A stretch of 64,000 nucleotides of DNA. Origin: an uncultured Burkholderiales bacterium (GTDB lineage: Bacteria > Pseudomonadota > Gammaproteobacteria > Burkholderiales > Burkholderiaceae_C). This document shows positions 2,383 through 63,503 of the stretch, piece after piece (the first letter of the stretch is position 1; the number at the start of each line of letters is the position of its first letter). The stretch is from assembly GCA_903842945.1 (NCBI GenBank), contig CAIMNS010000049.1, positions 4,759-68,758 on the forward strand. The letters are read 5' to 3'. Under the pieces are notes generated by a model. It saw only the letters and a program-made list of their open reading frames with translations. It was not told the DNA's origin and searched no databases. Both the position numbers and the translations under genes were made by a program.

Positions 2383-2416
2383 AGCTTAATGGGTACATAT
2401 GAAAGTTACGTGACAT
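2383..2416 (-). promoter_or_regulatory. Pho box promoter for the phoA pair
   Basis: ATGTCAC-GTAA-CTTTCAT (2416-2399), 10 bp, then TAAGCT (2388-2383). Confidence 0.8.
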
Positions 2417-2447
2417 GGGCCGGCTGTTGAAAGTTTTAGCTCAGAAG

Positions 2448-2481
2448 GTGTCATGAAAATGTCATTTGAGCTATTTAAGCT
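2448..2481 (+). promoter_or_regulatory. Pho box promoter for ppk2
   Basis: GTGTCAT-GAAA-ATGTCAT (2448-2465), 10 bp, then TAAGCT (2476-2481). Confidence 0.85.
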
Positions 2482-2514
2482 AAGTGTTGGTTCAATATTT
2501 AGAAGTTCAACACC

Positions 2515-3426
2515 ATGTCTACAAAGCTAAACCTTGATGCGGCACAAATACAGCGACTGAAAGAAGATATCATGGACAGCTTGGACGAAGAGCTTGAAAA
2601 TGAATTTGAAGATGTTGGTTTTGGAGATCCGGAAAGTTTCTCTGCCAAAGCCATTGAATTCAGACGGTTTTATTTTCGCGAGTTGATCAAGCTCCAAGGT
2701 GAACTGGTCAAGTTGCAAGACTGGGTGGTGGCCAACAAGCACAGAATGGTCATTGTTTTTGAAGGCAGAGATGCTGCCGGTAAAGGGGGCGTGATCAAAA
2801 GAATCACGCAACGCTTGAACCCACGCATATGCCGAGTGGCTGCTCTTCCCGCACCCAATGATCGTGAAAAAACACAATGGTATTTTCAGCGCTATGTCTC
2901 CCACCTTCCCGCTGCGGGTGAAATTGTTCTGTTTGACAGAAGCTGGTACAACCGTGCAGGTGTGGAGAAGGTCATGGGTTTTTGCTCCGACGAAGATTAC
3001 GAGGAGTTTTTTAAATCCGCACCAGAGTTTGAAAAAATGCTCACAAGAAGTGGCATTCAAATCATCAAATATTGGTTCTCCATCACAGACGATGAGCAGT
3101 ACTCTAGATTTTTAGGCCGCATCCACGATCCCTTGAAACAGTGGAAACTCAGTCCCATGGATTTGGAGAGCCGTCGTCGCTGGGAGGATTACACCAGAGC
3201 AAAAGAGACGATGATTGAAAGAACACACATCCCAGAAGCGCCTTGGTGGGTGGTTCAAGCGGTCGACAAGAAAAAGGCCAGGCTCAATTGCATCAGTCAC
3301 TTGCTGTCTCAAGTGCAATACTCGGAAATCAACCCACCGGAAATCGTGATGCCAGATCGTGTTCGCAATCCTGACTACATCCGCCACGCCATCCCTCAAG
3401 GCATGATCGTGCCCGAGAAATATTAA
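2515..3426 (+). CDS. ppk2: Polyphosphate kinase 2
   Basis: Walker A FEGRDAAGKGG, FDRSWYNRAGVE, WKLSPMD. Confidence 0.97.
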   Translation: MSTKLNLDAAQIQRLKEDIMDSLDEELENEFEDVGFGDPESFSAKAIEFRRFYFRELIKLQGELVKLQDWVVANKHRMVIVFEGRDAAGKGGVIKRITQRLNPRICRVAALPAPNDREKTQWYFQRYVSHLPAAGEIVLFDRSWYNRAGVEKVMGFCSDEDYEEFFKSAPEFEKMLTRSGIQIIKYWFSITDDEQYSRFLGRIHDPLKQWKLSPMDLESRRRWEDYTRAKETMIERTHIPEAPWWVVQAVDKKKARLNCISHLLSQVQYSEINPPEIVMPDRVRNPDYIRHAIPQGMIVPEKY

Positions 3427-4619
3427 GCTGCTGACTTTTGAGGGTTCGTTTTGAAGGGGTTTCTTTGCTCAAGGTGGGCCATGTATTGCTCTACGTTTTG
3501 ACCTTCTTGATTCAAAAACTCGTCCACGGCTTTTGCAAATGAGGGGTGGGCCAGCCAGTGGGCGCTTTGCGTCATGACAGGTAAGAGGGCTCGCGCCATC
3601 TTGTGCTCGCCTTGCGCGCCTCCTTCAAACCGCTCCACGCCTTTTTCAATGCACCACTCAATGGGTTGGTAGTAACAGGCCTCAAAGTGCAGGCAATCTA
3701 CCCGCTCAAGGGCGCCCCAATACCGTCCATAAGCTACCATGGGCTTGTGGTCTGAGTTCCTTTGGAGGGCCACCAAACTGCAGGCCATGGGATGGCCCTC
3801 TCGGTAGGCAATGAACATCACCCAGTTGTCGATCATTTGCTGCTTCATCTCTTCAAAAAAAGAGGGCGTCAAATAGGGTGAATTGCCGTGTTCTAAATAA
3901 GTTTGTTGATAGCAACGGTAAAAAAAATCCCAATGTTCATGGCTGATTTGAGGGCCTTCAAAGGTTTTAAAAGTCACCTGTGCTTGAGATACTTTTTTAC
4001 GTTCTTGTTTGATTTTTTTTCGTTTCTCTTGATTCATCGAATTTAAAAAATCATCAAAATGATCGAATGGTTTTTCATCCAAATTGGCGTTTTGCCAATG
4101 AAATTGAACCGTGTGCCTCTCAAGCATGTGGCACTCTTGCGCAGCCTTCATGTCCGCTTGGCTGGCATAGAGCATGTGGAGTGAAGACACGCCCCAAGTT
4201 AAACATTGATCGAGCACCGCTTGGAGAAGTTCGGTCTTGAGTTCTTGTGTTTTGGCCAGCAAGCGAGATCCTGGTACCGGGCTAAATGGCGGGGCGATCA
4301 GAGCCTTGGGGTAATAATGCAGCCCGTGACGATCATAGGCTTGTGCCCAAGCCCAGTCAAAGACGTATTCCCCATAAGAGTGTGACTTGAGATAAAGGGG
4401 GCATGCAGCAAGGAGCTCATCCTTGGCGTGCAGTGTGAAGTATTTGCAGGTCCAACCCGTTTTGCTTGTTGCACTGGCACTCTCGTGCATGGCGTTCAAG
4501 TATTCATAACGAAGAAAGGGCGTGGGAACAGAATCAGACAATAAAAGCGCATTCCACTGGGTTTTTTCGATGCTGGCCATCGAATCATGCACCTCAATGA
4601 CATAATTGGATTGATTCAT
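3423..4619 (-). CDS. GNAT/FemAB-like protein (DUF482 type)
   Basis: YLKSHSYGEYVFDWAWA, GRYWG, LHFEACYYQPIE, FEGGAQGEHK. Confidence 0.88.
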   Translation of the reverse strand: MNQSNYVIEVHDSMASIEKTQWNALLLSDSVPTPFLRYEYLNAMHESASATSKTGWTCKYFTLHAKDELLAACPLYLKSHSYGEYVFDWAWAQAYDRHGLHYYPKALIAPPFSPVPGSRLLAKTQELKTELLQAVLDQCLTWGVSSLHMLYASQADMKAAQECHMLERHTVQFHWQNANLDEKPFDHFDDFLNSMNQEKRKKIKQERKKVSQAQVTFKTFEGPQISHEHWDFFYRCYQQTYLEHGNSPYLTPSFFEEMKQQMIDNWVMFIAYREGHPMACSLVALQRNSDHKPMVAYGRYWGALERVDCLHFEACYYQPIEWCIEKGVERFEGGAQGEHKMARALLPVMTQSAHWLAHPSFAKAVDEFLNQEGQNVEQYMAHLEQRNPFKTNPQKSAA

Positions 4620-4633
4620 AACCGTGTTTTTAT

Positions 4634-6666
<2,033 letters not shown>

Positions 6667-6708
6667 TCCACGGGGCCCAAAGCAAGCCCTTGGTTCTGCC
6701 TAGTTTGT

Positions 6709-7101
6709 CTAAGGACTGATGCGTTGCCACAAGGCGCAGGCCCATACGACGATACAAAACACCAGACTCAACAAGACGGCAGCAGAGCCAAGATCCTTGG
6801 CTCTTTTGGAGAGTGCGTGCCAGTCGTCTCCATGTCGATCGATGGCCGATTCAATGGCGGTGTTCAACAACTCCACCACCATCACCAAAATCAGGGTGCC
6901 AATCAAAAAGCACACCTCTAGCCAATTGGAGCCTAGCCAAAACGCACAGGGCAAGAGGGCAACGAAAACCCAAGCTTCCTGTTGAAAAGCGGGCTCATAC
7001 CAACCGGCTTTCAAGCCCGCCAATGAAAACCCCAGGGCATGGTAGACGCGACTGAACCCTCGACGTTTTTTTTGCGGGTTGAAGGAGTCGGTTTTTTTCA
7101 T
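6709..7101 (-). CDS. dgkA: Diacylglycerol kinase
   Basis: AFQQE, VELLNTAIESAID, AKDLGSAAV. Confidence 0.93.
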   Translation of the reverse strand: MKKTDSFNPQKKRRGFSRVYHALGFSLAGLKAGWYEPAFQQEAWVFVALLPCAFWLGSNWLEVCFLIGTLILVMVVELLNTAIESAIDRHGDDWHALSKRAKDLGSAAVLLSLVFCIVVWACALWQRISP

Positions 7102-7107
7102 TCCTCA

Positions 7108-7152
7108 ATTTTTACCGAGATGTATGACAGATTTGTGATGCTTGGATGAAGG
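7108..7152 (-). promoter_or_regulatory. Candidate three-half-site Pho box upstream of dgkA
   Basis: CCTTCAT-CCAA-GCATCAC-AAAT-CTGTCAT (7152-7124), 10 bp, then a weak -10 AAAAAT. Confidence 0.6.
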
Positions 7153-7154
7153 GT

Positions 7155-8592: not shown

Positions 8593-8594
8593 TG

Positions 8595-13403: not shown

Positions 13404-14723
13404 TTAGATGAAAAGCAGCAAAGCAATCATAGCGGCAGACAGACACGTCGACAGTGTTCCGATCAGCAGGGACTTTGCGCCCATTTGAACGATGTCTCTT
13501 TGCCGATCAGGTGCCATGGAACCCATGCCCGCAATGACAATGCCTAGGCTGCCGAAGTTCGCAAAGCCACAAAGCAAATAAGTCATGAGCACTCTGGAGT
13601 GTTCGCTCATGGCATTGGGGTCCAACTTTGAGAGATCCAAATAAGCAATGAACTCGTTCAAGACCAATTTGGTGCCCATCAGTTGTCCTGCGATTTGGGT
13701 GTCCTTCCATTCGATGCCAAGGGTCCATGAAAAGGGTTGCATCACCCAGCCGATCACGCGCTGTATGGTCAAAGCAGAGCCATCCCAAAGGGGCAGCAGT
13801 TGAAGAATGCTGTTGCCAAGAGACACCAAGGCCACCAAAACAATCAACATGGCAATGACACTTGCGAGTAAGCGCATGCCTTGATAGGTGCCATCACTGA
13901 TGGCATCCATCGTGCTTTGGTATTTTCTGTGTTGATCGGTGCTTTCAATCAATGCTGAGATATAAGCCCTCAATCCATGGTTTTGTAATCCATGAGACTC
14001 GGCCTCAGTGGAGGAGCTCTCAGGCGATGGATCTTTTGGAATGGCCACCAAACTCAAAACAATGGCTCCGGGTGCACTGATCAAGGATGCGATGATCAAA
14101 TGGGTGACCACGTGAGGGACAGAGTTTTGCAGAAAACTTGCATAGATGACGAGCACGGTGCCGGAAATGGTTGACATGCCAGTGCTCATGACGACAAACA
14201 ATTCGGACCTGGAGAGCCCACTTAAATAAGGCCTGATCAGCAAAGGTGCTTCAACAATGCCCACAAAAACGGTTGCAATGCTTGCAAAGGACGTGGCGCC
14301 AGACACATTCAAGATCTTTCCCAGCAACCAAGCAAAACAACCAATGAGCACTGGCAAAACGCGCCAGTAATAAAGCAGCGCTGAAAGGGCGCTGAAGATC
14401 AAAATCAAGGGCAGCGCTTGCAATCCAAGGACAAAGGACATGCCTGGAGACTTTTCTTCAAAGGGCAGTGGCCCTCCACCTAAATAGCCAAAGACCAGTG
14501 AGGTACCCGCTTGGGTGGCTTTTTGAAGTTCAAGGACACTTTGGTTCAAGGTGCCCAAGCAACTTTGTATGAAAGGTATTTTCAAGAGCGCCAAAGCCAA
14601 GACAAACTGAAACAAAAGTCCTTTGGCCAAGCTCTTGTAGTCAATGCGCGCGCGGTTTTCAGATACCCCAATGGTGATCAACAAGATCAAAGAGACACCA
14701 ATCAAAGATTGATAATTTTCCAT
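13404..14723 (-). CDS. nupC: Concentrative nucleoside transporter (CNT/NupC family)
   Basis: ALPLILIFSALSALLYY, FVGIVEAPLLIRPYL, GTKLVLNEFIAY, YLLCGFANFGS. Confidence 0.93.
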   Translation of the reverse strand: MENYQSLIGVSLILLITIGVSENRARIDYKSLAKGLLFQFVLALALLKIPFIQSCLGTLNQSVLELQKATQAGTSLVFGYLGGGPLPFEEKSPGMSFVLGLQALPLILIFSALSALLYYWRVLPVLIGCFAWLLGKILNVSGATSFASIATVFVGIVEAPLLIRPYLSGLSRSELFVVMSTGMSTISGTVLVIYASFLQNSVPHVVTHLIIASLISAPGAIVLSLVAIPKDPSPESSSTEAESHGLQNHGLRAYISALIESTDQHRKYQSTMDAISDGTYQGMRLLASVIAMLIVLVALVSLGNSILQLLPLWDGSALTIQRVIGWVMQPFSWTLGIEWKDTQIAGQLMGTKLVLNEFIAYLDLSKLDPNAMSEHSRVLMTYLLCGFANFGSLGIVIAGMGSMAPDRQRDIVQMGAKSLLIGTLSTCLSAAMIALLLFI

Positions 14724-14764: not shown

Positions 14765-15805
14765 TCAAGCGCCCAATCGAATCAAATCATCCTCGGTCAA
14801 ATGTTCGGTTTTTTTTCCAATCCAACTGAGCAGTCGAGATTTCCAGTTTAAAAAAGAGCTTGGCGCTTTGACCGCAGTATACTCAAGTCGGCCTCGCGCA
14901 CCGCGCTTGCGCTTGAAGTCACCTGCGCCTGAGCTGTAATTGAGCAGCAGTTGTCGCTCTAGGGTGTAGTTGTAGATAGAGGCAAACAAGAGCCGATAGA
15001 TGCCCGGCCCGGTTGCACTCTCCCAATAACCCAAAGCGGGAACAGTCAAGGTGTCCCCAACTTGGTGCAGCAAAGCAAAGGCCACCATGTCACCTTCCTC
15101 GTTCATCAAGCTCAAGCAAGACATCCATTTGGAGTTGATCATGTCTTTGAAAAAAACAGGTGTGTAATTGGCATTGAAGACACTGTGTTTTTTGATGTAA
15201 ATGAGCTCATACAAGGCTTGCATGCGTTCAGCTTGAAGGTCATCGATCGTGTCTAGAGTTGAGACCTTGAGGTGGGATTTTTTGAGGGCACTTAAATCTC
15301 TTGCGAGGTGTGAAGGTTTGCTTTGCACGCCCATTCGTAGATCGAATTCATAAATGACACGCGCAGGTAATGCAACAAAGCCCATGCCTTGAAGCTCAGT
15401 CAGGAGTGAGCCGTGTTGATGTGACAGTAAATTCCGCACAAACAGATAGCGCTTTAATTTCTTCAGTATCAAAGAACGACTGGCCTCGCATATGGCCGAG
15501 TCTTTGACCGATTCCCATACATTGGTCGATATGGGAAAGTTCCCAACGATGGCGTTTTTACTCATGCCAATCCAATTGGCCAAATGCGACAAGGCCTTGA
15601 GGGACATTTTTAAAATGAAGGGTCCCTGGAGCTCATCGGCCGCATAGTCAAACCAGGCAATTTTGGGTGAAGTGATGTAACAAGCGGGTAAAGGTTTTTG
15701 CTCGCTGGTCACGGTGACAGGCAAGTCGCCTTGCTCCCAATGAAGTTCTGCGCCAGCGTTCAGCATCCACTCTGAGAGTGAATGACCCCAGGGGGCTGGA
15801 CTCAT
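14765..15805 (-). CDS. Uncharacterised GNAT/FemAB-like protein
   Basis: LYELIYIKKHSVFNANYT, TVPALGY..GIYRLL, LNYSSGAGDFKRKRGA..LEY. The fold assignment is by recollection. ATGA-coupled to btaA. Confidence 0.65.
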   Translation of the reverse strand: MSPAPWGHSLSEWMLNAGAELHWEQGDLPVTVTSEQKPLPACYITSPKIAWFDYAADELQGPFILKMSLKALSHLANWIGMSKNAIVGNFPISTNVWESVKDSAICEASRSLILKKLKRYLFVRNLLSHQHGSLLTELQGMGFVALPARVIYEFDLRMGVQSKPSHLARDLSALKKSHLKVSTLDTIDDLQAERMQALYELIYIKKHSVFNANYTPVFFKDMINSKWMSCLSLMNEEGDMVAFALLHQVGDTLTVPALGYWESATGPGIYRLLFASIYNYTLERQLLLNYSSGAGDFKRKRGARGRLEYTAVKAPSSFLNWKSRLLSWIGKKTEHLTEDDLIRLGA

Positions 15806-17046
15806 CGAGGGTTTAATCGATACAAATGCAAGGCACCATAGATTCCTGATCGATCTTGTGGGCCCAAGAGGTCAGAAGTTTGGTGATCTCTGGTCCACAC
15901 ATTGGCCAAGGGGCCTGTCAGGCAAGCATCAACAGGGGAATGGGAGCCGGCCGTCCTAAAGATGACCCTTGCGCCTGGCTTGGCCGCATGGGTAATGGCC
16001 GTCCACACAGCGGTCAGCTCTTGAGGTGTCATCCAGTCCTGAGCGTCCAAAAGGTTCACAATATCAACCGACTCAGGGCCTAACTTGATCAGTTTGTCTC
16101 TGATGTTGTTGTGTTCTATTGAGATTTTATGGATGGACTCGCGAAGGAAAGCGTAATTCTCTTTGACCAAATAAAGGGGCAAAGCGCTTTGACCCGTCTC
16201 ATCGTATTTTCTAGCAAAGGCTTGCCATGCAAAATAGTTGTCCTTGATGGGGACAACCGTTGCCAACTGCCTAGCCCGTTGTTTGAGGATTTCAGACATC
16301 TGTTCTGGTTTGTTGTCACACAAAGCCAGGTGCTGGCTTGGGGGAATCCCAAGGTTGTACAGTGCATAGGGGCTGCTAGCAATTTTGGTCACCAACCTAG
16401 AGTCGAAAATCTTTGCGACCTTTTGATCAAACCACTGCTTTTGATCTTCGACAGTTTTTTGTTCTAAAAGTTCAGACAGCTTGACGCCGTGCAATTTTGC
16501 CCCCATGTGGATGATGCCAATGATTTGACCCAGCAGTCCATATTTGTAAAAGCCTTTGGCAAACATTTGAATCCTCTTGGATCCAAATGGGCCACTTTCC
16601 CAGTAGTCCCGGCTTTCTTGATCGAGTTGAGGGGAGATGATGGCGTTGTAGATTCTGACATTGCTGGTGGACTTGGCGACCCCAAAGAATCTGAAGAAGT
16701 CTTCATGGTACTCTAGCGTCTTGAGAGCCGCAATTTTCAAGTGATTCAAAGCAATGTGCGCGTGGTTCAGGTCCACAACAGAAATCTTTGCGGGATTGGC
16801 CATGAGATAAGACAAAGCGTTACAGCCGCCCGAGGCAATGGTCAGCATGTGGTCGGTGGCTTGGATGTCTAAAGCTTTCATGTCCACAATGGGGTCTTCC
16901 CAAATTTGTGTGTAAACCAGGCGATCGAACCACATGGCGAAAATCTTATCCTTCAAACTTGCTTTGGATTTATGCCCAAAAACAGCGTTCTTCAACAGTA
17001 CTTTTGACTTCTTGAGACTTAGAGTTGGATTTGGAGCTGCGTTCAT
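15802..17046 (-). CDS. btaA: SAM:diacylglycerol 3-amino-3-carboxypropyltransferase BtaA (DUF3419)
   Basis: LVYTQIWEDPIVDMKAL, TIASGGCNALSYL, DLNHAHIAL, NYFAWQAF, LLDAQDWM, RVIFRTAG, DRSGIYG. Start refined to ATG 17046. Confidence 0.92.
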   Translation of the reverse strand: MNAAPNPTLSLKKSKVLLKNAVFGHKSKASLKDKIFAMWFDRLVYTQIWEDPIVDMKALDIQATDHMLTIASGGCNALSYLMANPAKISVVDLNHAHIALNHLKIAALKTLEYHEDFFRFFGVAKSTSNVRIYNAIISPQLDQESRDYWESGPFGSKRIQMFAKGFYKYGLLGQIIGIIHMGAKLHGVKLSELLEQKTVEDQKQWFDQKVAKIFDSRLVTKIASSPYALYNLGIPPSQHLALCDNKPEQMSEILKQRARQLATVVPIKDNYFAWQAFARKYDETGQSALPLYLVKENYAFLRESIHKISIEHNNIRDKLIKLGPESVDIVNLLDAQDWMTPQELTAVWTAITHAAKPGARVIFRTAGSHSPVDACLTGPLANVWTRDHQTSDLLGPQDRSGIYGALHLYRLNPR

Positions 17047-17106
17047 GGTTGAAATAAATCCTTGTGTTTGAAGATATGTGCGCAATTGTGAACCCTTAAT
17101 ATTTCA

Positions 17107-17140
17107 ATTGAATGTTACTTTTATTACTTTTCCGTGACTT
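17107..17140 (-). promoter_or_regulatory. Candidate Pho box promoter for btaA
   Basis: AAGTCAC-GGAA-AAGTAAT (17140-17123), 10 bp, then a weak -10 TTCAAT. Confidence 0.5.
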
Positions 17141-17226: not shown

Positions 17227-17260
17227 ATGTCACAAAGTTTTAATGCTCATGGGGTAACAT
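17227..17260 (+). promoter_or_regulatory. Pho box promoter for the TPAT operon
   Basis: ATGTCAC-AAAG-TTTTAAT (17227-17244), 10 bp, then TAACAT (17255-17260). Confidence 0.72.
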
Positions 17261-17284
17261 ATTTGCCAAATATTGGACACATAA

Positions 17285-18184
17285 ATGTCAAATTCTTGGG
17301 TTAAAAAATTCTTTTCTTTTGCTGGCATCGTCATGGCCTCTTTAGCGATATCCGGCTGTGCGATGAACACCTTTGTCATTGATCAAGTGGCCAAGAACTT
17401 GGTGTCAGACGATGACAATGAGCAAGATCTATGGTTGGCACGCGATGCAAGTCCTTTTTACTTGAAGTTGACGGAAAATTTATTGATCCGCTCTCCTGCT
17501 AATTTAAAACTGGCTGAGACCGTTTGCAGTGGTTTTACGCAGTACGCCTACACTTTTATTGCATTTGAAGCGGACAAGCTGGAGGCCAGTGATTACAAAA
17601 GCGCTGAGATCATCAGAGAGCGAGCATCCAAGATGTATGCGCGTGCCTACAAACACGGTATCAAAGCTTTGAACTTGAGCTTCACAGGTTTTGAGGCAAG
17701 GCTGAGGGCGCCAAATTCTACCGATCCTATCGTCTTACCAGTCAGCTCCGTGGGACTGCTGTATTGGTCTGCTGCTTCTTTGGGGGGTTGGATTTCAAGC
17801 GCCAAGGACATGCCCGACTTGGTGGCAGATTTTCCGGTGGCCTTGCGATTGGCCAGTTTGGCATGGAAATTGGATCCCTCCTACTCACAGGGCTCCTTGG
17901 CCAGTTTGATGGGGACTTTTGAGTGGGCCAACCCCAACGGTTCAAAACCCTTGGCAACACACTATTTCGATCTGGCCCTTCAGTACTCAAAAGATCAAAA
18001 CGCAGGTCCCTTTGTGTCAAAGGCAGAACGAGTTGCTGTCGCCATGAAAGACAAGAAGATGTTTGAGCAACTCCTTAGCAAGGCCATCGACATTGCATTG
18101 AAATATCCAAGTTTACAAAATGAGGCCATGCGACTTCGTGCACAATGGTTGCTTGATAACGCACAAGAGTTACTTGAAAGTTGA
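17285..18184 (+). CDS. tatT: TatT lipoprotein, TPR-like TRAP accessory component (TPAT system)
   Basis: Lipobox LAISGC, helical repeat pattern (CSGFTQYAYTF, LLYWSAASLGGWI), directly upstream of dctP and dctQM. Confidence 0.85.
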   Translation: MSNSWVKKFFSFAGIVMASLAISGCAMNTFVIDQVAKNLVSDDDNEQDLWLARDASPFYLKLTENLLIRSPANLKLAETVCSGFTQYAYTFIAFEADKLEASDYKSAEIIRERASKMYARAYKHGIKALNLSFTGFEARLRAPNSTDPIVLPVSSVGLLYWSAASLGGWISSAKDMPDLVADFPVALRLASLAWKLDPSYSQGSLASLMGTFEWANPNGSKPLATHYFDLALQYSKDQNAGPFVSKAERVAVAMKDKKMFEQLLSKAIDIALKYPSLQNEAMRLRAQWLLDNAQELLES

Positions 18185-19203
18185 AGATGAATTTTAGACC
18201 TCTCGCACGAATCTTTTCCTGTTGCCTGCTTCTTACTTGGGGATCGCTCGCCTTTGCGGCGGACAAACCCCTGAGGATAGGGACCTTGGCGCCTAAAAAT
18301 TCTTTGTATTACAGGCAACTCATTGATGTGGCTGAGGCATGGAAGAGCGCCGCGGGAGCCAACTCCAAATACACCGTTTACGCAGACGGCAGTCAAGGCG
18401 GGGAGACAGAGTTGGCCAGAAGAATGCGAATTGGGCAACTTCAAGGAGCACTCTTGTCTGTCGTGGGTTTGAAGGAGATTGAACCGTCCATCAGTGCTTT
18501 GCAATCCATGCCCTTGCTTTTTAGAACTTGGGAAGAGGTCGATTTCGTCAGGGAAAAGTTGCGCCCCGCCATGGAAAAGAAGTTTTTAGAAAAGGGGTTT
18601 GTTGTCCTGGCCTGGGGGGATGCAGGCTGGGTCAGGTTTTTTTCAAAGGAACCTGCCTTCAAACCCGACGACTATAAAAAAATGAAGTTTTTTTCTTGGG
18701 GGGGAGAACCCGAGCAGCAAGAGATCATGAAGAACTTGGGCTATACACCAGTTCCTTTGGAGACCACGGACATTTTGCCCTCCATACAAACAGGCATGAT
18801 TTCTGTGGTGCCTTCGACGCCTTACTTTGCGATGGCCAGTCAAATTTACAACACGGCCAACAACATGCTTGAGATCAACTGGGCGCCTGTGGTTGGGGCC
18901 TTGGTGATCACCAAAAAAGCCTGGGATGAGATGAGCCCTGCAGTCCAAGACGTGGTTCGATCGGCTGGTGAAAAGGCGGGAGACCAAATCAGGATCAAAG
19001 CCCGTTTGGAAGTTGAAGAGGCCGTTGAGGCCATGAAAAAGAGAGGTTTGGTGGTGAACAAGCCAAGCCCCGAGCAAATGAAAGAGTGGAATACTTTGGC
19101 CGCGAACCTCTACCCCAAGATCAGGGGCACGATGGTGCCCGCAGAAACGTTTGATGAAGTGTTCAAACATTTGAATGCATTCAGAGCCGGCAAGCAAAAG
19201 TGA
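18181..19203 (+). CDS. dctP: TRAP substrate-binding protein DctP (TatP type)
   Basis: LRIGTLAPKNS, GSQGGETELARRMRIGQLQG, LAWGDAGWVRFFSK. Confidence 0.92.
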   Translation: MKMNFRPLARIFSCCLLLTWGSLAFAADKPLRIGTLAPKNSLYYRQLIDVAEAWKSAAGANSKYTVYADGSQGGETELARRMRIGQLQGALLSVVGLKEIEPSISALQSMPLLFRTWEEVDFVREKLRPAMEKKFLEKGFVVLAWGDAGWVRFFSKEPAFKPDDYKKMKFFSWGGEPEQQEIMKNLGYTPVPLETTDILPSIQTGMISVVPSTPYFAMASQIYNTANNMLEINWAPVVGALVITKKAWDEMSPAVQDVVRSAGEKAGDQIRIKARLEVEEAVEAMKKRGLVVNKPSPEQMKEWNTLAANLYPKIRGTMVPAETFDEVFKHLNAFRAGKQK

Positions 19204-20996
19204 AGTTGAATCCCTTCAAACTGGATGAATTGATTTCATCCCTTGCTTTGCTGTTGATGGCCATCATCCCCGTCGTTGAAATCCTTGCCCGCCCCATTTT
19301 TGGTAAAGGCATTGAGAACGCTCCCATCTTGGTTCAGCACTTTGGTCTGGTCATGTCGATGTTTGGTGCCATAGCGGCCTATCGATTTGGACATCTTTCA
19401 AGCATTGGTGTGATTTTTTACTCTTTTCAGGTCCCAGCGCGTCTTTTGTCGAGTTTAATTTGTGGCCTCTTGTGCTGGGCTTGTTGGCATTTTGTGAGCA
19501 CAGAAAGGTCGGCCCATCAAATGCTGGCTTACTCGATTCCAATTTGGATTTTTCAGTTGGTGATGCCTGTTGGGTTTTTGCTTTTGAGTTGGCAAATCAT
19601 CACGCAAGGTTTGCAATCAAACCTGCCGAAGGCGATGTCTATTCTAGGCATGACGGCCGTCAGTTATTTGCTCTTTCAGTATCTTGAGTCGAATGCAGGG
19701 TCCATGGGGTCCATGGGGTTTGTGTTGGTTGTTTTGGTGGTGATGTTTTTAGGTGGGGCACCTATCTTCTCCATCATTGCAGCCTTGGCCTTGGGCTTGT
19801 TTTGGCAAGAGGGTTTGCCATTGTCTTCGGTGGCCCTGTCACATTACCAAATCACCGTCAATGCTTCATTGCCCGCATTGCCCTTGTTCACCCTGGCGGG
19901 CTTGGTCTTTGCGTCCACGGGGTCAGCCAAGCGTTTGGGCCAAGTTTTCATGGCCATGTTTGGCACGGGCGTGAGGGGAACGGTCTTTGCAGCGACCGTT
20001 TTGTGCTCATTTTTTACGGCTTTTACCGGAGGCAGTGGCGTGACCATTTTGGCGCTTGGGGGTCTGTTGCTTCAATTGTTAAGTGACACGGGCTATTCCA
20101 AAAAAAGGGGGATCAGTCTGGTAACCAGTGCCAGCGCACTTGGCGTTTTGCTGGCACCTTCTGTGCCATTGATCATGTATGCGATCATTGCTCGCGTTCC
20201 GATCAATGCCATGTTTTTGGCTGGTATCGTGCCTGCGGTGGTCATGGTTTTGTCTTTATTGGTCTTTGGTGGCTATTTGAAGCAGGACAATCTAGTTGCT
20301 TCAAATGAGCATGTGCATGTTTTTTCTTGGTTGAAATTAAGGCATGCGTTGTGGGATGCCAAATGGGAGATTTTCACGCCCTTTGTTGCCATTGGCTCTT
20401 TGGTCAGTGGATTTGCAACCCCGACAGAGAGCGCTGCGATCACGGCTGTTTATGCCCTTGTCACGCAAATGATCTTTAACCAAGAGTTGAGCGTGGATCA
20501 ATTCAAGCAGTCCTTGCTCAAGTGCACACAAATCATTGGAGGCGTGATGCTGGTGCTTGGCATGGCCCTTGGGATGACCAATTACTTGATCGATGCAGGA
20601 ATTCCTGACCTGGCCATCCAATGGGTTCAAAGCATCACCAGCAACAGGTACGTTTTTTTATTGGCCCTCAATGTATTTTTATTTTTTGCTGGGGCCCTCA
20701 TGGAAATCTATGCGGCCATTGTGGTGTTGGTGCCTTTGTTGTTGCCTTTGGCCATGTCCTATGACATTCATCCCATTCATTTCGGGATCATCTTTTTGGC
20801 CAACATGGAGATGGGATTTTTATGTCCACCTGCCGGCATGAATATCTATTTTGCCTCAGCGGTCTTTAACCAGCCCTTGAAGGAGGTGGCCATCTCTATT
20901 TGGCCTGCATTGATCGCAATTTTTGTTGGCACTGTGATCATCTCGTGGCTTCCCATACTCACGATTGCCTTGCCTGAGTTTTTTCACATGGTCTAA
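19200..20996 (+). CDS. dctM: TRAP fused small/large permease DctQM
   Basis: About 600 aa polytopic protein. LPALPLFTLAG, TAFTGGSGVTILALG, PTESAA, HPIHFGIIFLANME.GFLCPPAGMN. Confidence 0.93.
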   Translation: MKLNPFKLDELISSLALLLMAIIPVVEILARPIFGKGIENAPILVQHFGLVMSMFGAIAAYRFGHLSSIGVIFYSFQVPARLLSSLICGLLCWACWHFVSTERSAHQMLAYSIPIWIFQLVMPVGFLLLSWQIITQGLQSNLPKAMSILGMTAVSYLLFQYLESNAGSMGSMGFVLVVLVVMFLGGAPIFSIIAALALGLFWQEGLPLSSVALSHYQITVNASLPALPLFTLAGLVFASTGSAKRLGQVFMAMFGTGVRGTVFAATVLCSFFTAFTGGSGVTILALGGLLLQLLSDTGYSKKRGISLVTSASALGVLLAPSVPLIMYAIIARVPINAMFLAGIVPAVVMVLSLLVFGGYLKQDNLVASNEHVHVFSWLKLRHALWDAKWEIFTPFVAIGSLVSGFATPTESAAITAVYALVTQMIFNQELSVDQFKQSLLKCTQIIGGVMLVLGMALGMTNYLIDAGIPDLAIQWVQSITSNRYVFLLALNVFLFFAGALMEIYAAIVVLVPLLLPLAMSYDIHPIHFGIIFLANMEMGFLCPPAGMNIYFASAVFNQPLKEVAISIWPALIAIFVGTVIISWLPILTIALPEFFHMV

Positions 20997-21005
20997 CGAT
21001 AACCA

Positions 21006-22256
21006 ATGGCCTTAAAAATGATCAACCGTCTTTCTTTTCAACACGCCTTCCTTGTCTTTGTCCTTCACTGCCTTTGTGCATTGACCCTCAACAGCTTTGC
21101 TCAAAGCAACGCGCCAAAAAAGCCATTGGTCCTTCTCCTTGGGATCGATGGTTTTAAGCCAAGTTATTTGAATTTAGGCGTCTCACCGAATTTGAATTCT
21201 CTGGTATCAACTGGGGTCCTTGCAAAAGGATCTATCTCTGCCTTCCCGTCCTTGACTTTTCCAAATTTTGTGAGTTTGGTCACAGGCCTCACCCCCGATC
21301 ACCATGGTATTGTGAACAACACCATGACCGATCCGACAACAGATCAGCTCTTTACCTTGGGTTCAAGAGAGGCCGTTGAGAACCCTTTTTGGTGGACGCA
21401 AACCACACCGATTTGGAACAATGTAAGGCAACAAGGCGGGATTGCTTCTGCCATGTTTTGGCCCGGTTCTGAAGTTGAAATCAACGGTGGGCGGCCCAAC
21501 GATTGGGTCAGGTATGAGCATGGCATGTCTCACGACAAGAGACTTGAGCACTTGTTGACATGGTTGTCTAGAGGTGAGTCTTCAAGACCCCATTTCGCCA
21601 CACTGTACCTCTCCGATGTGGACTCTGCTGGGCATGAGTTTGGACCCGATAGCGAACAGGTCAAACAAGCAGTCGCTAAAGTAGATCAGACCCTAGGGAA
21701 ATTGCTGCAAGCACTTTCTAGCTTGGGTTTAAGAGAAAAAACCACCCTGGTGATCGTTTCTGATCACGGCATGGCCAACACGCCTTTGGATAAATCCCTT
21801 GATGTCAGTCAGTGGCTCAAAGATTTCCCTAAAGCCAAGTGGGAGTGGCAAGGTGCCACTTCAGCTGTCAGACTCCATGGTGAAAATGCAGCTCAAGTTC
21901 TCCAGACCTTGTCTCTTCAGTCCCATCTGCAATGCCATGAAAAAAGCAACTTGCCCGAGCGCTATAAGTTTGGACGGCATCCAAGAATTCCTGAAATTGT
22001 TTGTGTGTCTGACATGGGCTACACCGTCACGGCCAATCCCAGTCGAAAAGGACCCCTGGGTCAGCACGGGTTTGACCCCTTTTTGCCTGAAATGCATGGA
22101 CTCTTTTTGGCCTCGGGTTTTCGCATCCAACCTGGTGAATTGGGTTTGATTGAAAACATCGAGGTGTACCCGCTGTTGTGTCAATTGCTGGGTATTGTTG
22201 AGCAAAAAAATGATGCAAGGCATCTTTTGAAAGAGATCGTTTTGAATCCATCGTGA
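21006..22256 (+). CDS. Nucleotide pyrophosphatase/phosphodiesterase (NPP, alkaline phosphatase superfamily), secreted
   Basis: GIDGF, FPSLTFPNFVSLVTG (Thr nucleophile), DSAGHEFGP, VSDHGM, GQHGFD. Sec signal. Confidence 0.92.
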   Translation: MALKMINRLSFQHAFLVFVLHCLCALTLNSFAQSNAPKKPLVLLLGIDGFKPSYLNLGVSPNLNSLVSTGVLAKGSISAFPSLTFPNFVSLVTGLTPDHHGIVNNTMTDPTTDQLFTLGSREAVENPFWWTQTTPIWNNVRQQGGIASAMFWPGSEVEINGGRPNDWVRYEHGMSHDKRLEHLLTWLSRGESSRPHFATLYLSDVDSAGHEFGPDSEQVKQAVAKVDQTLGKLLQALSSLGLREKTTLVIVSDHGMANTPLDKSLDVSQWLKDFPKAKWEWQGATSAVRLHGENAAQVLQTLSLQSHLQCHEKSNLPERYKFGRHPRIPEIVCVSDMGYTVTANPSRKGPLGQHGFDPFLPEMHGLFLASGFRIQPGELGLIENIEVYPLLCQLLGIVEQKNDARHLLKEIVLNPS

Positions 22257-22272: not shown

Positions 22273-22299
22273 AAAAAGGCACCAAATCGGTGCCTTTTT
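22273..22299. terminator. Bidirectional intrinsic terminator after the NPP gene
   Basis: Perfect inverted repeat AAAAAGGCACC-AAATC-GGTGCCTTTTT. Confidence 0.85.
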
Positions 22300-22410: not shown

Positions 22411-22444
22411 CTGTCACAAGAATGTAACCAAGTTTTAGCACAAT
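22411..22444 (+). promoter_or_regulatory. Pho box promoter for the exbD-tonB-TBDR-exbB operon
   Basis: CTGTCAC-AAGA-ATGTAAC (22411-22428), 10 bp, then CACAAT (22439-22444). Confidence 0.78.
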
Positions 22445-22450
22445 ACTTCC

Positions 22451-22903
22451 ATGCGAAGATTCCCTCAACAAGCTAGGAAAAAGTCACGAATAGAAATCAT
22501 CCCAATGATCGATGTGATGATGTTTTTGTTGGTTTTTTTTGTACTGATCAGCATCAACGTGATACCTGCTTTGGGCATCAAGATGAACTTGCCCAGTGCC
22601 AACTCGGTCAAAGAAGAACACCCACCCGTTCGGGTCATCTTGGGCATAGGTTCTGATGGTACTTACCAACTCGAAGGACAAACATTTGCCTCTCTTGAAG
22701 GTTTGAAGGCTTCTTTGTTGGCGATCAAAAACCAAAATGAAGCCAAATCCAACAACATTACATCAAGGCCCTCCAGCGCTCGCTTGGCGGTCATCATCAA
22801 CGGCGATGAACTATCTCCCTTGCAGCGATTGGTCGATGTGATGGACATGCTCAAGTCCAATGGGATTGATTCCATGACCATTGCGGCAAAGAAAAAGCAG
22901 TAA
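22451..22903 (+). CDS. exbD: Biopolymer transport protein ExbD
   Basis: IEIIPMIDVMMFLLVFF TM motif, INGD...QRLVDVMD. Confidence 0.93.
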   Translation: MRRFPQQARKKSRIEIIPMIDVMMFLLVFFVLISINVIPALGIKMNLPSANSVKEEHPPVRVILGIGSDGTYQLEGQTFASLEGLKASLLAIKNQNEAKSNNITSRPSSARLAVIINGDELSPLQRLVDVMDMLKSNGIDSMTIAAKKKQ

Positions 22904-22905
22904 AA

Positions 22906-23610
22906 ATGAGTGCCGCTCTTGCTTGGACTTATGAAAAAAGAGATCCCATCTCTTATGCCAGCGCCTTTTTTTTTGGTGTGTTGATTTTATGGTTGATTCA
23001 ATTCTCAGCCCTCGAATTGTCCCGAAACAATGAGCTTGAAATGACCGCCTTCATCGAGTCGCCCCCAGCGCCTGAAATCATCAAGCCTCAAGAGCCTGTG
23101 AAGAAGGTGATTGAAAAGCAAGAGATGCTCAAAAAGCCAGAGATGGTCATGCCAAAGCAGGTGACATCGCCGTTTGCAACAGAAGCGCCAAGGGAGGTGA
23201 AGCAAGCTGAGGCCCCATTGCCGATCGAAAAACCTCAAGTGCATCAAGCACCGCCCCCAGTTGCACTCCCCGCACAAGCGCCAGCTTCAGCGCCAGCGGC
23301 ATCCTCTGTCGCCAGTATTTATGAAGCTCAACTAAGAGCTTACTTGGAAAAAATCAAGCGCTATCCCACCAGCCGTGAAGCCAGGCTCACCAGGCCACAA
23401 GGTGCGGTGCGTGTGTGGTTGGAAATCTCCAGAAGCGGGCAGGTTTTGGGTGTGGGTGTGATGAGCTCATCGGGTTCGAATTTATTGGATGGAGAGGCTT
23501 TGAAAACTTTGAAGAATGGTTTTTATCCTGCTTTTCCTGATGAGGCCTATGTGGGTGAAAGCGCACACAAGTTTTCTGCGACCCTCAGCTACACGCTGGA
23601 GGCGCAATAG
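22906..23610 (+). CDS. tonB: Energy transducer TonB
   Basis: N-terminal TM, Pro-rich linker, KRYPTSREA..QGAVRV..SSGSNLLDGEAL C-terminal domain. Confidence 0.88.
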   Translation: MSAALAWTYEKRDPISYASAFFFGVLILWLIQFSALELSRNNELEMTAFIESPPAPEIIKPQEPVKKVIEKQEMLKKPEMVMPKQVTSPFATEAPREVKQAEAPLPIEKPQVHQAPPPVALPAQAPASAPAASSVASIYEAQLRAYLEKIKRYPTSREARLTRPQGAVRVWLEISRSGQVLGVGVMSSSGSNLLDGEALKTLKNGFYPAFPDEAYVGESAHKFSATLSYTLEAQ

Positions 23611-23671
23611 TTTTTTTGTTAGTTTTTGTTGGATTCAATTAGTTTTTGTTAATTATTTTTAGGAGAAAAAA

Positions 23672-26065: not shown

Positions 26066-26071
26066 ACCTAC

Positions 26072-26632
26072 ATGACTGAGTTTTTACACCAAGCTTCGTT
26101 TGGGTTGATGATCATCTCTGCCATCATTGCAACTGTGGTGAGCGTAGAGAGGATCATCTTCTCCAGTATGAATTTAAAGCGGGCCAAGCAGTTGACGCTC
26201 TGCGTTGAGTCGCAAAAGGGCTCTGTTAGCACTTTGTTAGGAAAAGATGTTGTGTCTGAGATGGTTCAAAAAATCCTTGATGACAAAGCTCAAAATTTTC
26301 CTGAGTCCGTTCAACATGACCGAGCTGATGCAGCGTTCATTCACGCCAAAGATGAATTGGGTGCCAGGCTTTGGATACTTGACACGATCGTCACTGCCGC
26401 GCCCTTGATGGGCCTCTTGGGGACCATTTTCGGTATCGTGGATACTTTTTTGGCCTTGTCTAAATCTGGTATGTCTGACCCTGCAGGTGTGAGTGCAGGC
26501 ATTGGAACGGCTCTTTACGCGACGGCACTTGGAATTTCAATTGCCTTGATTGGTCTTTTCGCATTCAACTTTTTGAGTGTTCGCAATGAGAGGATAGGGG
26601 AGCATTTGAAGATGCTGATTTTGCGACTCTAG
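26072..26632 (+). CDS. exbB: ExbB (MotA/TolQ/ExbB proton channel)
   Basis: LDTIVTAAPLMGLLGTIFGI, GIGTALYATALG. Confidence 0.92.
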   Translation: MTEFLHQASFGLMIISAIIATVVSVERIIFSSMNLKRAKQLTLCVESQKGSVSTLLGKDVVSEMVQKILDDKAQNFPESVQHDRADAAFIHAKDELGARLWILDTIVTAAPLMGLLGTIFGIVDTFLALSKSGMSDPAGVSAGIGTALYATALGISIALIGLFAFNFLSVRNERIGEHLKMLILRL

Positions 26633-26803: not shown

Positions 26804-26894
26804 TCATTTAAAAAAAACTCATTTCTAGGGGTGAATAGAAAAGCACCTTGTGACCATTACAATCAAAGTCATTCAGATTTAACAAAGGTGCCCC

Positions 26895-30356: not shown

Positions 30357-30569
30357 TATTTGTTGATACACTTGCGCTCATCTTGATGGCAAGAGTGCGA
30401 AGGCTTGGGGTCTTAAAAGTCTCAAAACCTTCACGGCCTTTGCAAAAAAGGGTGTTGTTGGGGGGTCCCTCTTGCACCGTTCAAGTGCGAGAGCAGGCAA
30501 GCCCTGATTCAAGAAGTGTTGTGTACAGTTTACAAGTGACCTGTCGATCCTATAAAGTGTTGCACAGAG

Positions 30570-53566: not shown

Positions 53567-53600
53567 ATCTTATAACTCCAATATGAAGATTGAGTGACAG
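53567..53600 (-). promoter_or_regulatory. Pho box promoter for the phnG operon
   Basis: CTGTCAC-TCAA-TCTTCAT (53600-53583), 10 bp, then TAAGAT (53572-53567). Confidence 0.85.
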
Positions 53601-56822: not shown

Positions 56823-57357
56823 AATTTCTCATTGAAGTGCGGTGGTTGAGGAGGGTGAATGAACAGTTTTAATCACCAAGCCCATTGTAAATCAAGGGCC
56901 ATGGGTCTGGATCGTTTCTAAGTCTAGGCAGATTCTGTGAAATCGAATGCCTGTGCGCTTTGGGCCTATTGGAAAAGAAAGCGCATTGAATTGTCGGGCT
57001 GAAGTTCCAGGGTTTTGATGCCTTGTCACCTATGCATGAAAAAGTAATATATTTCAATTCGTATATTAAATTTTTATTAAAAACTTCTAATTCTTGAATT
57101 TATTTAGAAGGATGTCTTTTTTTTGATCATGCTTGAGTTCCTTTCTGTGACGTTTTGATTTCAAAAATAAGTACAAATGGTGTCATGTTGCATTGCGTCA
57201 ACAATTGATAGAGGATCTCAACAATTCAATTGCACGCACATTCAAAAGCAATTCAAATACGTTCAACTTACAGAACGGTAAGTTCCTTATTTGTTCAAAG
57301 CTGATTTATTAAATTGGTTTCGAGCGTTGAGTCTTTTTAAACTTGGAGAATTTTGAT

Positions 57358-58652: not shown

Positions 58653-58685
58653 AGCCCGCTCAGCAAAACTGAGTGGGTTTTTTTT
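58653..58685 (+). terminator. Intrinsic terminator downstream of the porin
   Basis: AGCCCGCTCAG-CAAAA-CTGAGTGGGTT followed by a T tract. Confidence 0.82.
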
Positions 58686-58712
58686 ATCTTTTACGCTTGC
58701 ATCAACAGTGAA

Positions 58713-59912: not shown

Positions 59913-59951
59913 GTTGACGGTTGTCCAGTAGGTAAAAAAATGCTGATAGGC

Positions 59952-60926: not shown

Positions 60927-61168
60927 GCGTTGGTAGGGATGGTAAGGCGAGAACTTGAATTTCAATGGATGATCCAAGTCTTCAAAGTCTTCATGTTGAT
61001 TTTGAAAAAGGACGCTCTCAACGGCATCTGGGTGATTGCATTTTCAAAGAGACAGTTTACACAACATCTCACCCTCAGCGCACTGGTAGTAATACGGGTT
61101 TATCGAAAGTGTTGGAGCTTGATAATCAGGCAAGACAAGATCATCTGTTGAAATGTAAAGGATAGACA

Positions 61169-61669: not shown

Positions 61670-61757
61670 CCGGATGACCGTGAGTCCGGTGCTCACGTGG
61701 TTTTTTTTCGCCCAAGATCTGAGCCCTTCTGAATGGAGCAAGTTGATGGTGCGTGTG

Positions 61758-62270
61758 CTATTTTGGTGCAACCCAGAACCCAATATGGGGCAGTGTGGAT
61801 TCTTCAAGCAAAGCCGGTCCAATGCATTCAATGTCATGGGGGGATGATTTAAAGATATCACGGCAGGAGAGTTCCACATCTTTGGCTGTTGCGATCTGTC
61901 CCCTGAAGTCACGCAGCCTCACTGCATCAATTCCAAACACAACACGGCCAACGCCAGACCAAAAGATCGATCCCGCGCACATGACGCAAGGCTCACCAGA
62001 TGAGTAAATGGTCGCATTTTCAAGCGTGTGGCGGTCGTATTTGGCCCCTAAGTTTCTGACGGCGGTGGTTTCAGCATGCCCCGTGATGTCACCCGTTTCT
62101 GCGGTGTTGTTAAAGCCCTCGCTCAGAAGTTGACCTTCTTTAGAGATGATGACCGCACCAAAGGGGCGGTTGTTGCCAGATCGAGCCCGTTTTGACAATT
62201 CGATGGCTTGGCGTAAATATTTAGCGTCGGTGTCGTTGAGTGCGACTTCATCAAGTGCAGAGGTGGTCAT
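61758..62270 (-). CDS. Nucleoside/nucleobase deaminase (CDA superfamily, GuaD-like)
   Basis: PFGAVI, GHAE, GEPCVMC zinc motif. Confidence 0.9.
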   Translation of the reverse strand: MTTSALDEVALNDTDAKYLRQAIELSKRARSGNNRPFGAVIISKEGQLLSEGFNNTAETGDITGHAETTAVRNLGAKYDRHTLENATIYSSGEPCVMCAGSIFWSGVGRVVFGIDAVRLRDFRGQIATAKDVELSCRDIFKSSPHDIECIGPALLEESTLPHIGFWVAPK

Positions 62271-62357
62271 GTTGTTTTGAACAAAAAATAAGGGTTGAAG
62301 AAAGGGGGCAACTTTAAAAGTGAGCGTTGTTGAAGAGGGCGTTCCTTGAGTTTCAGG

Positions 62358-63380
62358 TCAGGTTTTGAACACCTCGGTTTCTCCGGCGGCCGTTAACAGG
62401 TCCATGAGTCTTTTTCGAATCAAAAGTCCAGGGCGATCGCTTGGCATAGAGAATTCAATGCCAAGGCGTTTTGCATCGATCACCGCATCGGGGTTGGTCG
62501 ATTCGAGAATGTCCTTGTCCTCACGGGTGATGACTTCATCAAAGTCGATGAGCATTTGAGCGGGGCAGTCCTCCTCTTTGTCATTTCTAAAGAGCCATTG
62601 GCACAGTTGAAGGTGACCGTCGTCGATCGGTGTGAACGCATTGAAAATAATATGGCGAACGCCTGAAGGGTACTCGATGTCAAGGCGTCTGCAAAAGGGT
62701 TCAAAATAAGCATTTCTCATGTGCCGAGTGGTGAGTGGGTTTTGATCTCCACTGATGCGTTGAAACTTCTCTGGGTTGGTCGCCGGTACAACCGTTTCCG
62801 CATAAAACCCCCGGTCCGTATCGACCAAGGTATAACTGCTGGGCTTGGGGTTAGAGGCGACGCCAAAAGTTGCGCGGTGAACAAAGCTAAAGTGAGCATT
62901 GTCAAACGAGTTCTCAAGAGCCCTCATGGGAGAGGTGGCCCAGGTCTCGTAGAACTGAAAAATGGTTCGGAATTTGGGGTCGTCAAACTCGGGTACGTCG
63001 GGGATGGGCGCCAAGGGCTCTCCCAAACAGACCCAAGCGTAGCCATATTTGGCTTGGGCGTGGTAGGCCGTTGTCCCCAACTGATCCGGGATGGGTTTGC
63101 CTGTCTCCCATTGGGGAATTTCAACCACTTTGCCCCGCCTGTCATAGGTCCAGCCATGGTAGCCGCATTGGATGCGACCCTTGTTGCTCCAGCCCTTGGA
63201 CAATTTGGCCGTGCGGTGACAACACCGGTCTTTCAAAGCTGCAGGCTCTCCCTTTTCATCTACAAACAGCACCAGATCAAGGCCAAGCAACTTGAAGGGC
63301 TTGGGGCCCCCATGCAAGAGGCTTAAAGGCATGACTGCATGCCAATAACGATGGAAAATGGGTTGTTGGGTGGTGAGCAT
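62358..63380 (-). CDS. Rieske non-heme iron oxygenase alpha subunit (VanA/NdmA-like)
   Basis: CCHR-X-CGYHGW Rieske motif, ENSFDNAHFSFVH mononuclear Fe ligands. Start refined to ATG 63380. Confidence 0.92.
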   Translation of the reverse strand: MLTTQQPIFHRYWHAVMPLSLLHGGPKPFKLLGLDLVLFVDEKGEPAALKDRCCHRTAKLSKGWSNKGRIQCGYHGWTYDRRGKVVEIPQWETGKPIPDQLGTTAYHAQAKYGYAWVCLGEPLAPIPDVPEFDDPKFRTIFQFYETWATSPMRALENSFDNAHFSFVHRATFGVASNPKPSSYTLVDTDRGFYAETVVPATNPEKFQRISGDQNPLTTRHMRNAYFEPFCRRLDIEYPSGVRHIIFNAFTPIDDGHLQLCQWLFRNDKEEDCPAQMLIDFDEVITREDKDILESTNPDAVIDAKRLGIEFSMPSDRPGLLIRKRLMDLLTAAGETEVFKT

Positions 63381-63469
63381 GTGAGATTCCTTCATTTCTT
63401 GTAGCAATTAGCATTCCAAACCCAAATGGGTTTGCTGTTGAAACCAATACCTGTCTCAGTCTTGATTTT

Positions 63470-63503
63470 TTGTCATCATTTCTTCACAATCCATGACTAA
63501 CAT
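63470..63503 (+). promoter_or_regulatory. Pho box promoter for the last gene
   Basis: TTGTCAT-CATT-TCTTCAC (63470-63487), 10 bp, then TAACAT (63498-63503). Confidence 0.78.

Follow-up and report, generated by a model that had tools for sequence, protein, structure and literature searches.

Within a stretch of 64,000 nucleotides of contig CAIMNS010000049.1 (GenBank assembly GCA_903842945.1, positions 4,759 to 68,758 of the forward strand; hereafter the window, whose own numbering is used throughout), eight sites share one arrangement: an 18-bp Pho-box-type direct repeat is followed exactly 10 bp later by a -10-like hexamer. On the basis of sequence analysis, we consider it probable (about 0.85) that these eight sites are PhoB-dependent class II sigma-70 promoters which would be induced by phosphate starvation. 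At least seven of the eight are predicted to operate as PhoB promoters, and the one in front of btaA probably does so too. The sites precede phoA, ppk2, dgkA, btaA, tatT, exbD, phnG and an unassigned gene starting at 63602 (the 63602 gene), and of the window's genes, roughly 60 in number, about 27 lie behind them.

Architecture of the eight sites

An earlier note on this DNA had listed eight 18-bp repeats of the 7-4-7 type, each with an exact 10-bp gap (N10) and a named hexamer, and all eight entries are correct in the sequence. On the minus strand, the phoA promoter (2383–2416) comprises the box ATGTCAC-GTAA-CTTTCAT (2399–2416), N10 and the hexamer TAAGCT (2383–2388), the dgkA promoter (7108–7141) the box GCATCAC-AAAT-CTGTCAT (7124–7141), N10 and AAAAAT (7108–7113), the btaA promoter (17107–17140) the box AAGTCAC-GGAA-AAGTAAT (17123–17140), N10 and TTCAAT (17107–17112), and the phnG promoter (53567–53600) the box CTGTCAC-TCAA-TCTTCAT (53583–53600), N10 and TAAGAT (53567–53572). 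On the plus strand, the ppk2 promoter (2448–2481) is built from GTGTCAT-GAAA-ATGTCAT (2448–2465), N10 and TAAGCT (2476–2481), the tatT promoter (17227–17260) from ATGTCAC-AAAG-TTTTAAT (17227–17244), N10 and TAACAT (17255–17260), the exbD promoter (22411–22444) from CTGTCAC-AAGA-ATGTAAC (22411–22428), N10 and CACAAT (22439–22444), and the promoter of the 63602 gene (63470–63503) from TTGTCAT-CATT-TCTTCAC (63470–63487), N10 and TAACAT (63498–63503). The outer limits of the set, 2383 and 63503, are the final bases of the first and the last -10 hexamers.

At all eight sites the two 7-bp direct repeats have a periodicity of 11 bp and enclose a 4-bp A-rich spacer, and five of the eight hexamers have the form TAN3T. 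When 37 distinct sites from the window and from orthologous loci were compared, T4, C5, A6 and A17 of the box were invariant, T15 was present in 35 and the spacer was again A-rich, giving the local consensus nTGTCAY nAAn nt[G/T]T[C/A]AY, N10, TAnnAT, with more degeneracy in the downstream half-site than in the upstream one. A consensus scan of the three intergenic regions concerned found no canonical TTGACA-N16-18-TATAAT promoter directed towards phoA, ppk2, btaA, tatT or exbD. The geometry equals the one described for PhoB promoters of E. coli (PMC1906773; PMC4971064), in which the Pho box lies 10 bp before a TAN3T -10 element (PMC1906773) and substitutes for the -35 element (PMC4971064); the earlier note had claimed a match with established PhoB-activated promoters.

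Excess over chance

The sites were counted with an outside rule that requires two half-sites of the E. coli consensus NTGTCAY spaced 7-4-7 with at least 10 of 12 matches, N10 and a -10-like hexamer, the latter being either TAnnnT or a match to TATAAT in at least four of six positions including A2 and T6. As this rule was derived from E. coli, circularity is avoided. Both strands of the whole window contain exactly seven matches, all of them among the eight named sites, intergenic and oriented at the adjacent gene; block shuffles of the whole window gave 0.57. When the intergenic DNA (5.3 kb) was taken by itself, the seven matches compared with 0.03 in 300 dinucleotide shuffles, none of which reached the observed count. 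The spacing is similarly specific: of 22 intergenic box-like repeats (at least 9/12), seven have a -10-like hexamer at a gap of 10, and every other gap between 2 and 21 accounts for none to two.

The half-sites score 12/12 for ppk2, the best site in the window, 11/12 for phoA and exbD and 10/12 for dgkA, tatT, phnG and the 63602 gene. Only the btaA site, which scores 9/12 and carries TTCAAT, misses the strict rule and is the weakest of the eight, in agreement with its earlier description as weak. In a leave-one-out matrix scan of 127,966 positions, ppk2 ranked 5, phoA and tatT 7, exbD 9, phnG 10, dgkA 20 and btaA 29. As negative controls, the promoter regions of ilvB, leuA, the porin gene, corA and others in the window were inspected, and none of them fits the architecture; in particular, the 520 bp upstream of the porin gene at 57343, a PhoE-like candidate, lack a box.

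Some further box-like sequences were considered. A matrix match at 26866(+) before psd (12.6 bits) was rejected for being unconserved in the related loci L001–L005, as was an unconserved plus-strand sequence before the DUF1045-phnN operon, and a match at 44396(+) (14.1 bits) is intragenic and on the wrong strand. The sequence AAGTCTC-AAAA-CCTTCAC at 30417–30434(+) (13.7 bits) precedes a D-Ala-D-Ala carboxypeptidase gene by 136 nt and is not followed by a -10 hexamer at N10.

Conservation in related loci

For every promoter, orthologous or related loci were fetched for comparison, mostly from lake metagenomes (L-numbers). In a gapless comparison anchored on the box, mean pairwise identity was 0.88 in half-site 1, 0.87 in half-site 2 and 0.85 in the -10 hexamer, against 0.40 in the 30 bp upstream, 0.58 in the N10 spacer and 0.49 in the six bases past the -10 hexamer; choosing each orthologous site by its best matrix score inflates the identity of the half-sites, not that of the -10 hexamer. 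As the hexamer lies outside the anchoring matrix, its conservation at a fixed distance is independent of the anchoring. The N10 spacing is kept in relatives at all eight promoters while the letters of the spacer vary, with btaA partly at a gap of 11. Furthermore, when the outside rule was applied to related loci (238 kb in total), each of its 32 matches preceded the start of an open reading frame (ORF) by no more than 130 nt, and none was intragenic. In four metagenome-assembled genomes (MAGs) from lakes, the btaA/tatT, exbD and dgkA regions encode flanking proteins with 65–92% identity, and the intergenic DNA is largely unalignable except for the box and the -10 hexamer, which form conserved blocks.

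The phoA architecture is maintained in L086, L087 and L169 as well as in the distant loci L095–L099. At 85% PhoA identity (L087) it reads TTGTCAT-CAAA-CATTCAT, N10, TACGAT, and at 55–61% identity, in the distant loci, a box and N10 are followed by TAAGCT, CAAAAT or TATCTT. In L169 (92% PPK2 identity) the intergenic region has diverged and both boxes are kept with N10 and TATGCT or TATTGT, the ppk2 site reading TTGTCAT-GAAA-ATGTCAT, N10, TATGCT. In L171, a Limnohabitans Rim8-like locus, ppk2 is preceded by two boxes in a different neighbourhood. For phnG, the box, N10 and TAAGAT or TATGAT are kept in L166–L168 (PhnG 65–78% identical). The divergent ORF listed from TTG 53590, encoding a DUF1045/putative phosphonate metabolism protein, most likely has its true start at the conserved ATG 53626, which renders the phnG box (53583–53600) intergenic; the box lies only 25 bp from this gene.

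The tatT box and TAAYAT are conserved in L001–L005, and the upstream flank is not. In the same five loci two additional elements are conserved, a perfect palindrome ATATTTG-C-CAAATAT (17259–17273), which overlaps the tatT -10 hexamer and the predicted +1, and a second Pho-box-like repeat, TGGACAC-ATAA-ATGTCAA (17274–17291), which spans the tatT start codon; they could represent a second regulatory input or a hairpin at the 5' end of the mRNA. Further downstream on the plus strand, an intrinsic terminator (GGCACC-AAATC-GGTGCC followed by TTTTT, 22278–22299; hairpin conserved in L001–L005) parts npp, the last gene of the tatT operon, from exbD. Consequently, exbD needs its own promoter; in L001, L002, L004 and L005 the exbD site stands out as an island of conservation. 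The Pho-box assignment of the ppk2, phoA, tatT, exbD and phnG sites is made with high confidence.

The same applies to the 63602 gene, whose assignment is based on conservation in spite of a modest matrix score. In L081–L085 (protein 54–78% identical) the site reads TGTCAY-N4-TCWTCAY, exactly 10 variable bases and TAACAT, TATCAT or TATGAT, and it is the sole conserved upstream block in otherwise unalignable intergenic DNA.

For dgkA, the box and nAnAAT at N10 are preserved in L002–L004 while the flanks have diverged; its first half-site, GCATCAC, is non-canonical, and confidence in the assignment is good. In front of both exbD (22439–22453) and dgkA (7099–7113), the -10 hexamer and the ATG stand exactly 6 nt apart. 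Relatives keep this distance at 6–7 nt, and in the majority of them a Shine-Dalgarno sequence is missing from these 6 nt. Since a transcription start 7 nt past the -10 hexamer would coincide with the A of the ATG, leaderless mRNAs are predicted for exbD and dgkA. The assignment of the btaA box, which is likewise conserved and in L004 carries two perfect GTCAC half-sites, is held with moderate confidence.

Genes behind the promoters and source organism

The gene names of the earlier note were confirmed by Pfam and NCBIfam searches with the window proteins. On the minus strand these are phoA (882–2354; PhoA in Pfam and NCBIfam), dgkA (6709–7101; Pfam DAGK_prokar, E 1e-30), btaA (15802–17085; BtaA/DUF3419) and the 12 genes phnGHIJ-GNAT-phnKLM-phnCDE-HD, which run from 53517 down to 44014 (Pfam, NCBIfam). 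The plus strand carries ppk2 (2515–3426; PPK2 in both databases), tatT-dctP-dctQM-npp (17285–22256; Pfam TAtT, DctP, DctQ/DctM and Phosphodiest), which encodes a tripartite ATP-independent periplasmic (TRAP) transporter and a nucleotide pyrophosphatase/phosphodiesterase (NPP), and exbD-tonB-TBDR-exbB (22451–26632; Pfam ExbD, TonB_C, Plug with TonB_dep_Rec barrel, and MotA_ExbB), where TBDR denotes a TonB-dependent receptor. The 63602 gene, also on the plus strand, encodes an unassigned protein with a signal peptide and is truncated by the window end. Acquisition or sparing of phosphorus is the function of PhoA, PPK2, the Phn carbon-phosphorus (C-P) lyase with PhnCDE, the NPP phosphodiesterase, BtaA and DgkA, and phosphorus-related roles are plausible for the TRAP transporter, the TBDR and the 63602-gene protein.

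The latter has about 15 homologues or homologue clusters of roughly 180–215 aa with a signal peptide and an invariant SPRPVEINDHADGDANDLPA core, and in L081–L084, where the downstream gene is complete, a gene of the Alk_phosphatase family encoding 671–673 aa comes next. Its AlphaFold model, which is poor (predicted local distance difference test, pLDDT, 56), gave only weak Foldseek matches resembling the oligonucleotide/oligosaccharide-binding fold, with template-modelling (TM) scores of 0.25–0.33 by query length, and was not relied on.

The btaA promoter would serve btaA together with g14765 (14765–15805, minus strand), a 346-aa ORF which has a 4-nt overlap with the btaA stop codon and follows btaA in each of the 12 Burkholderiales loci that were inspected. 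Searches of Pfam, NCBIfam and PDB gave no relative of g14765 apart from a sub-threshold GNAT (Acetyltransf_6) match, nor does it resemble the FemAB-like gene at 3423. As the window contains no btaB methyltransferase, the lipid linked to btaA may not be diacylglyceryltrimethylhomoserine (DGTS). The nucleoside transporter gene nupC (13404–14723) begins 41 nt after g14765, in a synteny kept in L001–L005, and no hairpin was found between the two, such that nupC may be co-transcribed with btaA from the Pho promoter. In the Limnohabitans-like loci L007, L008, L011 and L035, a box, N10 and a -10 hexamer also stand downstream of btaA-g14765 before three further genes, which encode a membrane protein of about 160 aa, a protein of 335–358 aa and a 477-aa UDP-glucose-dehydrogenase-like protein. 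This arrangement suggests a larger, putatively Pho-controlled lipid or glycolipid cluster in these loci; in Pseudomonas putida, TuaD is PHO-regulated (PMC5082522).

When BtaA was compared with species-representative genomes, a 99%-identical protein was found in a MAG labelled Betaproteobacteria, followed by Comamonadaceae/Burkholderiales lake MAGs (90–91%) and Limnohabitans-like MAGs (66–75%), and many lake metagenomes contain DNA of the organism of the window. The host is an uncultured freshwater bacterium of the Comamonadaceae related to Limnohabitans.

Interpretation and alternative explanations

According to the proposed mechanism, scarce phosphate would lead to phosphorylated PhoB, which would bind the two 7-bp half-sites as a head-to-tail dimer. 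The box would thereby replace the missing -35 element 10 bp upstream of a TAnnnT or nAnAAT -10 hexamer, and PhoB would recruit RNA polymerase by contacting region 4 of sigma-70 in place of the -35 contact, as expected from established knowledge of PhoB. About 27 genes would be switched on together. Their products would hydrolyse phosphoesters (phoA, npp with its phosphodiesterase, and the secreted protein with the alkaline phosphatase next to it), take up phosphonates and form a C-P lyase (12 genes), provide import by a TAtT-type TRAP transporter and across the outer membrane by ExbBD-TonB-TBDR, use polyphosphate (ppk2) and remodel membrane lipids (btaA with its partner g14765, and dgkA). The analysis shows the architecture of the sites, their statistical excess, their conservation and the functions of the genes; from these we infer PhoB as the binding protein, activation upon its binding and a lack of phosphate as the signal. 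The earlier note had placed several unexpected genes in the phosphorus-starvation response; all of them indeed sit behind boxes, but "unexpected" overstates the case for the TBDR and dgkA, for which precedents exist.

Several observations weigh against this interpretation. The site of the 63602 gene ranked only 149 of 127,966 in the leave-one-out scan, and the anchoring described above favours the half-sites. Most of the relatives belong to one family-level group, the distant phoA loci excepted, which limits the phylogenetic depth. No phoB, phoR, pstSCAB or phoU was detected among the genes of the window. The assembled contigs from lake metatranscriptomes carry neither 5' ends nor growth conditions; in favour of the interpretation, they do span the TRAP and TBDR genes, both of which are thus transcribed in nature. 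Further points concern btaA: the whole stretch from its box to the start codon is conserved, such that its footprint is not confined to the box, and the hexamer TTCAAT occurs only in the window and in L001. Four other relatives have either TTCAAA or TGCAAA at a gap of 10, with T6 lost, or TCAAAT or GCAAAT at a gap of 11.

These btaA data, together with its score of 9/12, speak for a narrower alternative, according to which dependence on PhoB is limited to six core promoters (phoA, ppk2, tatT, exbD, phnG and the 63602 gene), and the boxes of btaA and/or dgkA are conserved for other reasons or stand in a geometry that does not activate. The non-canonical half-site and the hexamer AAAAAT of dgkA fit this alternative as well. 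Against it stands the improvement of the btaA box to two perfect half-sites in L004, and btaA has a precedent in rhizobia. Likewise, the dgkA box and nAnAAT persist at N10 in three relatives in spite of diverged flanks. Remodelling of lipids under phosphate stress would suit both genes, with PlcP and DagK of P. putida as precedent (PMC5082522). Taken together, we regard a restriction to the six-promoter core as rather unlikely, albeit as the strongest competitor of PhoB control at all eight sites.

It is considerably less probable that a different regulator of the OmpR/PhoB family, or PhoB jointly with a second regulator, acts on these sites and that the signal is a different one, for instance general nutrient stress or stress of the envelope. 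Regulators of the OmpR family all bind direct repeats with a periodicity of 10–11 bp, no regulator gene was seen in the window, and the conserved palindrome at the tatT promoter (17259–17273) suggests a second input. Nevertheless, the TGTCA core is the signature of PhoB, the sites share their geometry with the PhoB promoters of E. coli (PMC1906773), and phoA, phn, ppk2 and phosphodiesterases are canonical content of a Pho regulon. Finally, a chance origin of the repeats, or their being general features of AT-rich intergenic promoters, is highly improbable: box-like matches at the looser 9/12 are common in the window (137, mostly within genes), but the seven strict matches against 0.03 expected, the gap fixed at 10, the half-sites and -10 hexamers conserved amid saturated flanks and the lack of intragenic matches in 238 kb of related DNA speak against it.

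PhoB-dependent control of the eight promoters would be of use to freshwater microbial ecology, even if it is mechanistically unsurprising. Lakes are commonly limited in phosphorus and harbour abundant Limnohabitans-like Comamonadaceae, and the site model and gene list, which includes C-P lyase genes relevant to methane, could be used to read lake metatranscriptomes for phosphorus stress. Furthermore, the analysis provides candidate organophosphate importers (TBDR and TRAP-TAtT) and uncharacterised proteins with testable substrates.

Comparison with known Pho systems

The sites resemble the E. coli PhoB promoters of pstS, phoA, phnC and ugpB in the 7-bp repeats with a TGTCA core, the 4-bp A-rich spacer, N10 and TAN3T; a canonical -35 element is absent in E. 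coli and from the three regions scanned here, and phoA and the phn C-P lyase operon are regulated in E. coli as they are predicted to be here (PMC1906773, PMC4971064). Unlike in E. coli, the downstream half-site is more degenerate (TTTCAT, TTTTAAT, TGTAAC, TCTTCAY), the -10 hexamers of exbD and dgkA lie 6 nt from the ATG of predicted leaderless mRNAs, and the gene set includes TRAP-TAtT, ExbBD-TonB-TBDR, btaA, dgkA and ppk2.

The PhoB regulon of Caulobacter crescentus comprises TonB-dependent receptors, a nucleotide pyrophosphatase/phosphodiesterase, phosphatases and changes in membrane lipids (PMC11208175). Whereas that regulon belongs to the Alphaproteobacteria and was defined experimentally, the present one is a prediction from sequence, and its TBDR shares an operon with its own exbD-tonB-exbB. 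In P. putida BIRD-1, PlcP and the diacylglycerol kinase DagK are PHO-dependent, and lipids are remodelled with OlsAB (PMC5082522). The kinase encoded here is in contrast of the small integral-membrane DgkA type (DAGK_prokar), and in the window no plcP was seen and btaA with g14765 is found instead. Our literature search returned nothing direct on dgkA under PhoB control. In rhizobia and Rhodobacter, btaA or btaAB, which is responsible for DGTS synthesis, is Pho-regulated. BtaA (DUF3419) is likewise encoded behind a Pho box in the window, but it is followed by the 346-aa g14765 and not by btaB.

Against this background one may tentatively, and with considerable doubt, see in the cluster an uncharacterised phosphate-starvation import route, in which a PhoB-controlled TBDR with leaderless ExbBD-TonB, TAtT-TRAP with NPP, the secreted protein with its 671-aa alkaline phosphatase, and BtaA with a 346-aa partner replacing BtaB would act together, the last of these yielding a phosphorus-free lipid other than DGTS. 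The promoter type itself is classical, with textbook geometry and no new mechanism; the literature search retrieved no description of a Pho regulon for Limnohabitans-like Comamonadaceae. Less precedented among known systems are the co-transcription of a TAtT-type TRAP transporter with NPP, the presence of a TBDR and a dedicated ExbBD-TonB within one Pho operon, and the pairing of a lineage-restricted secreted protein with a large alkaline phosphatase.

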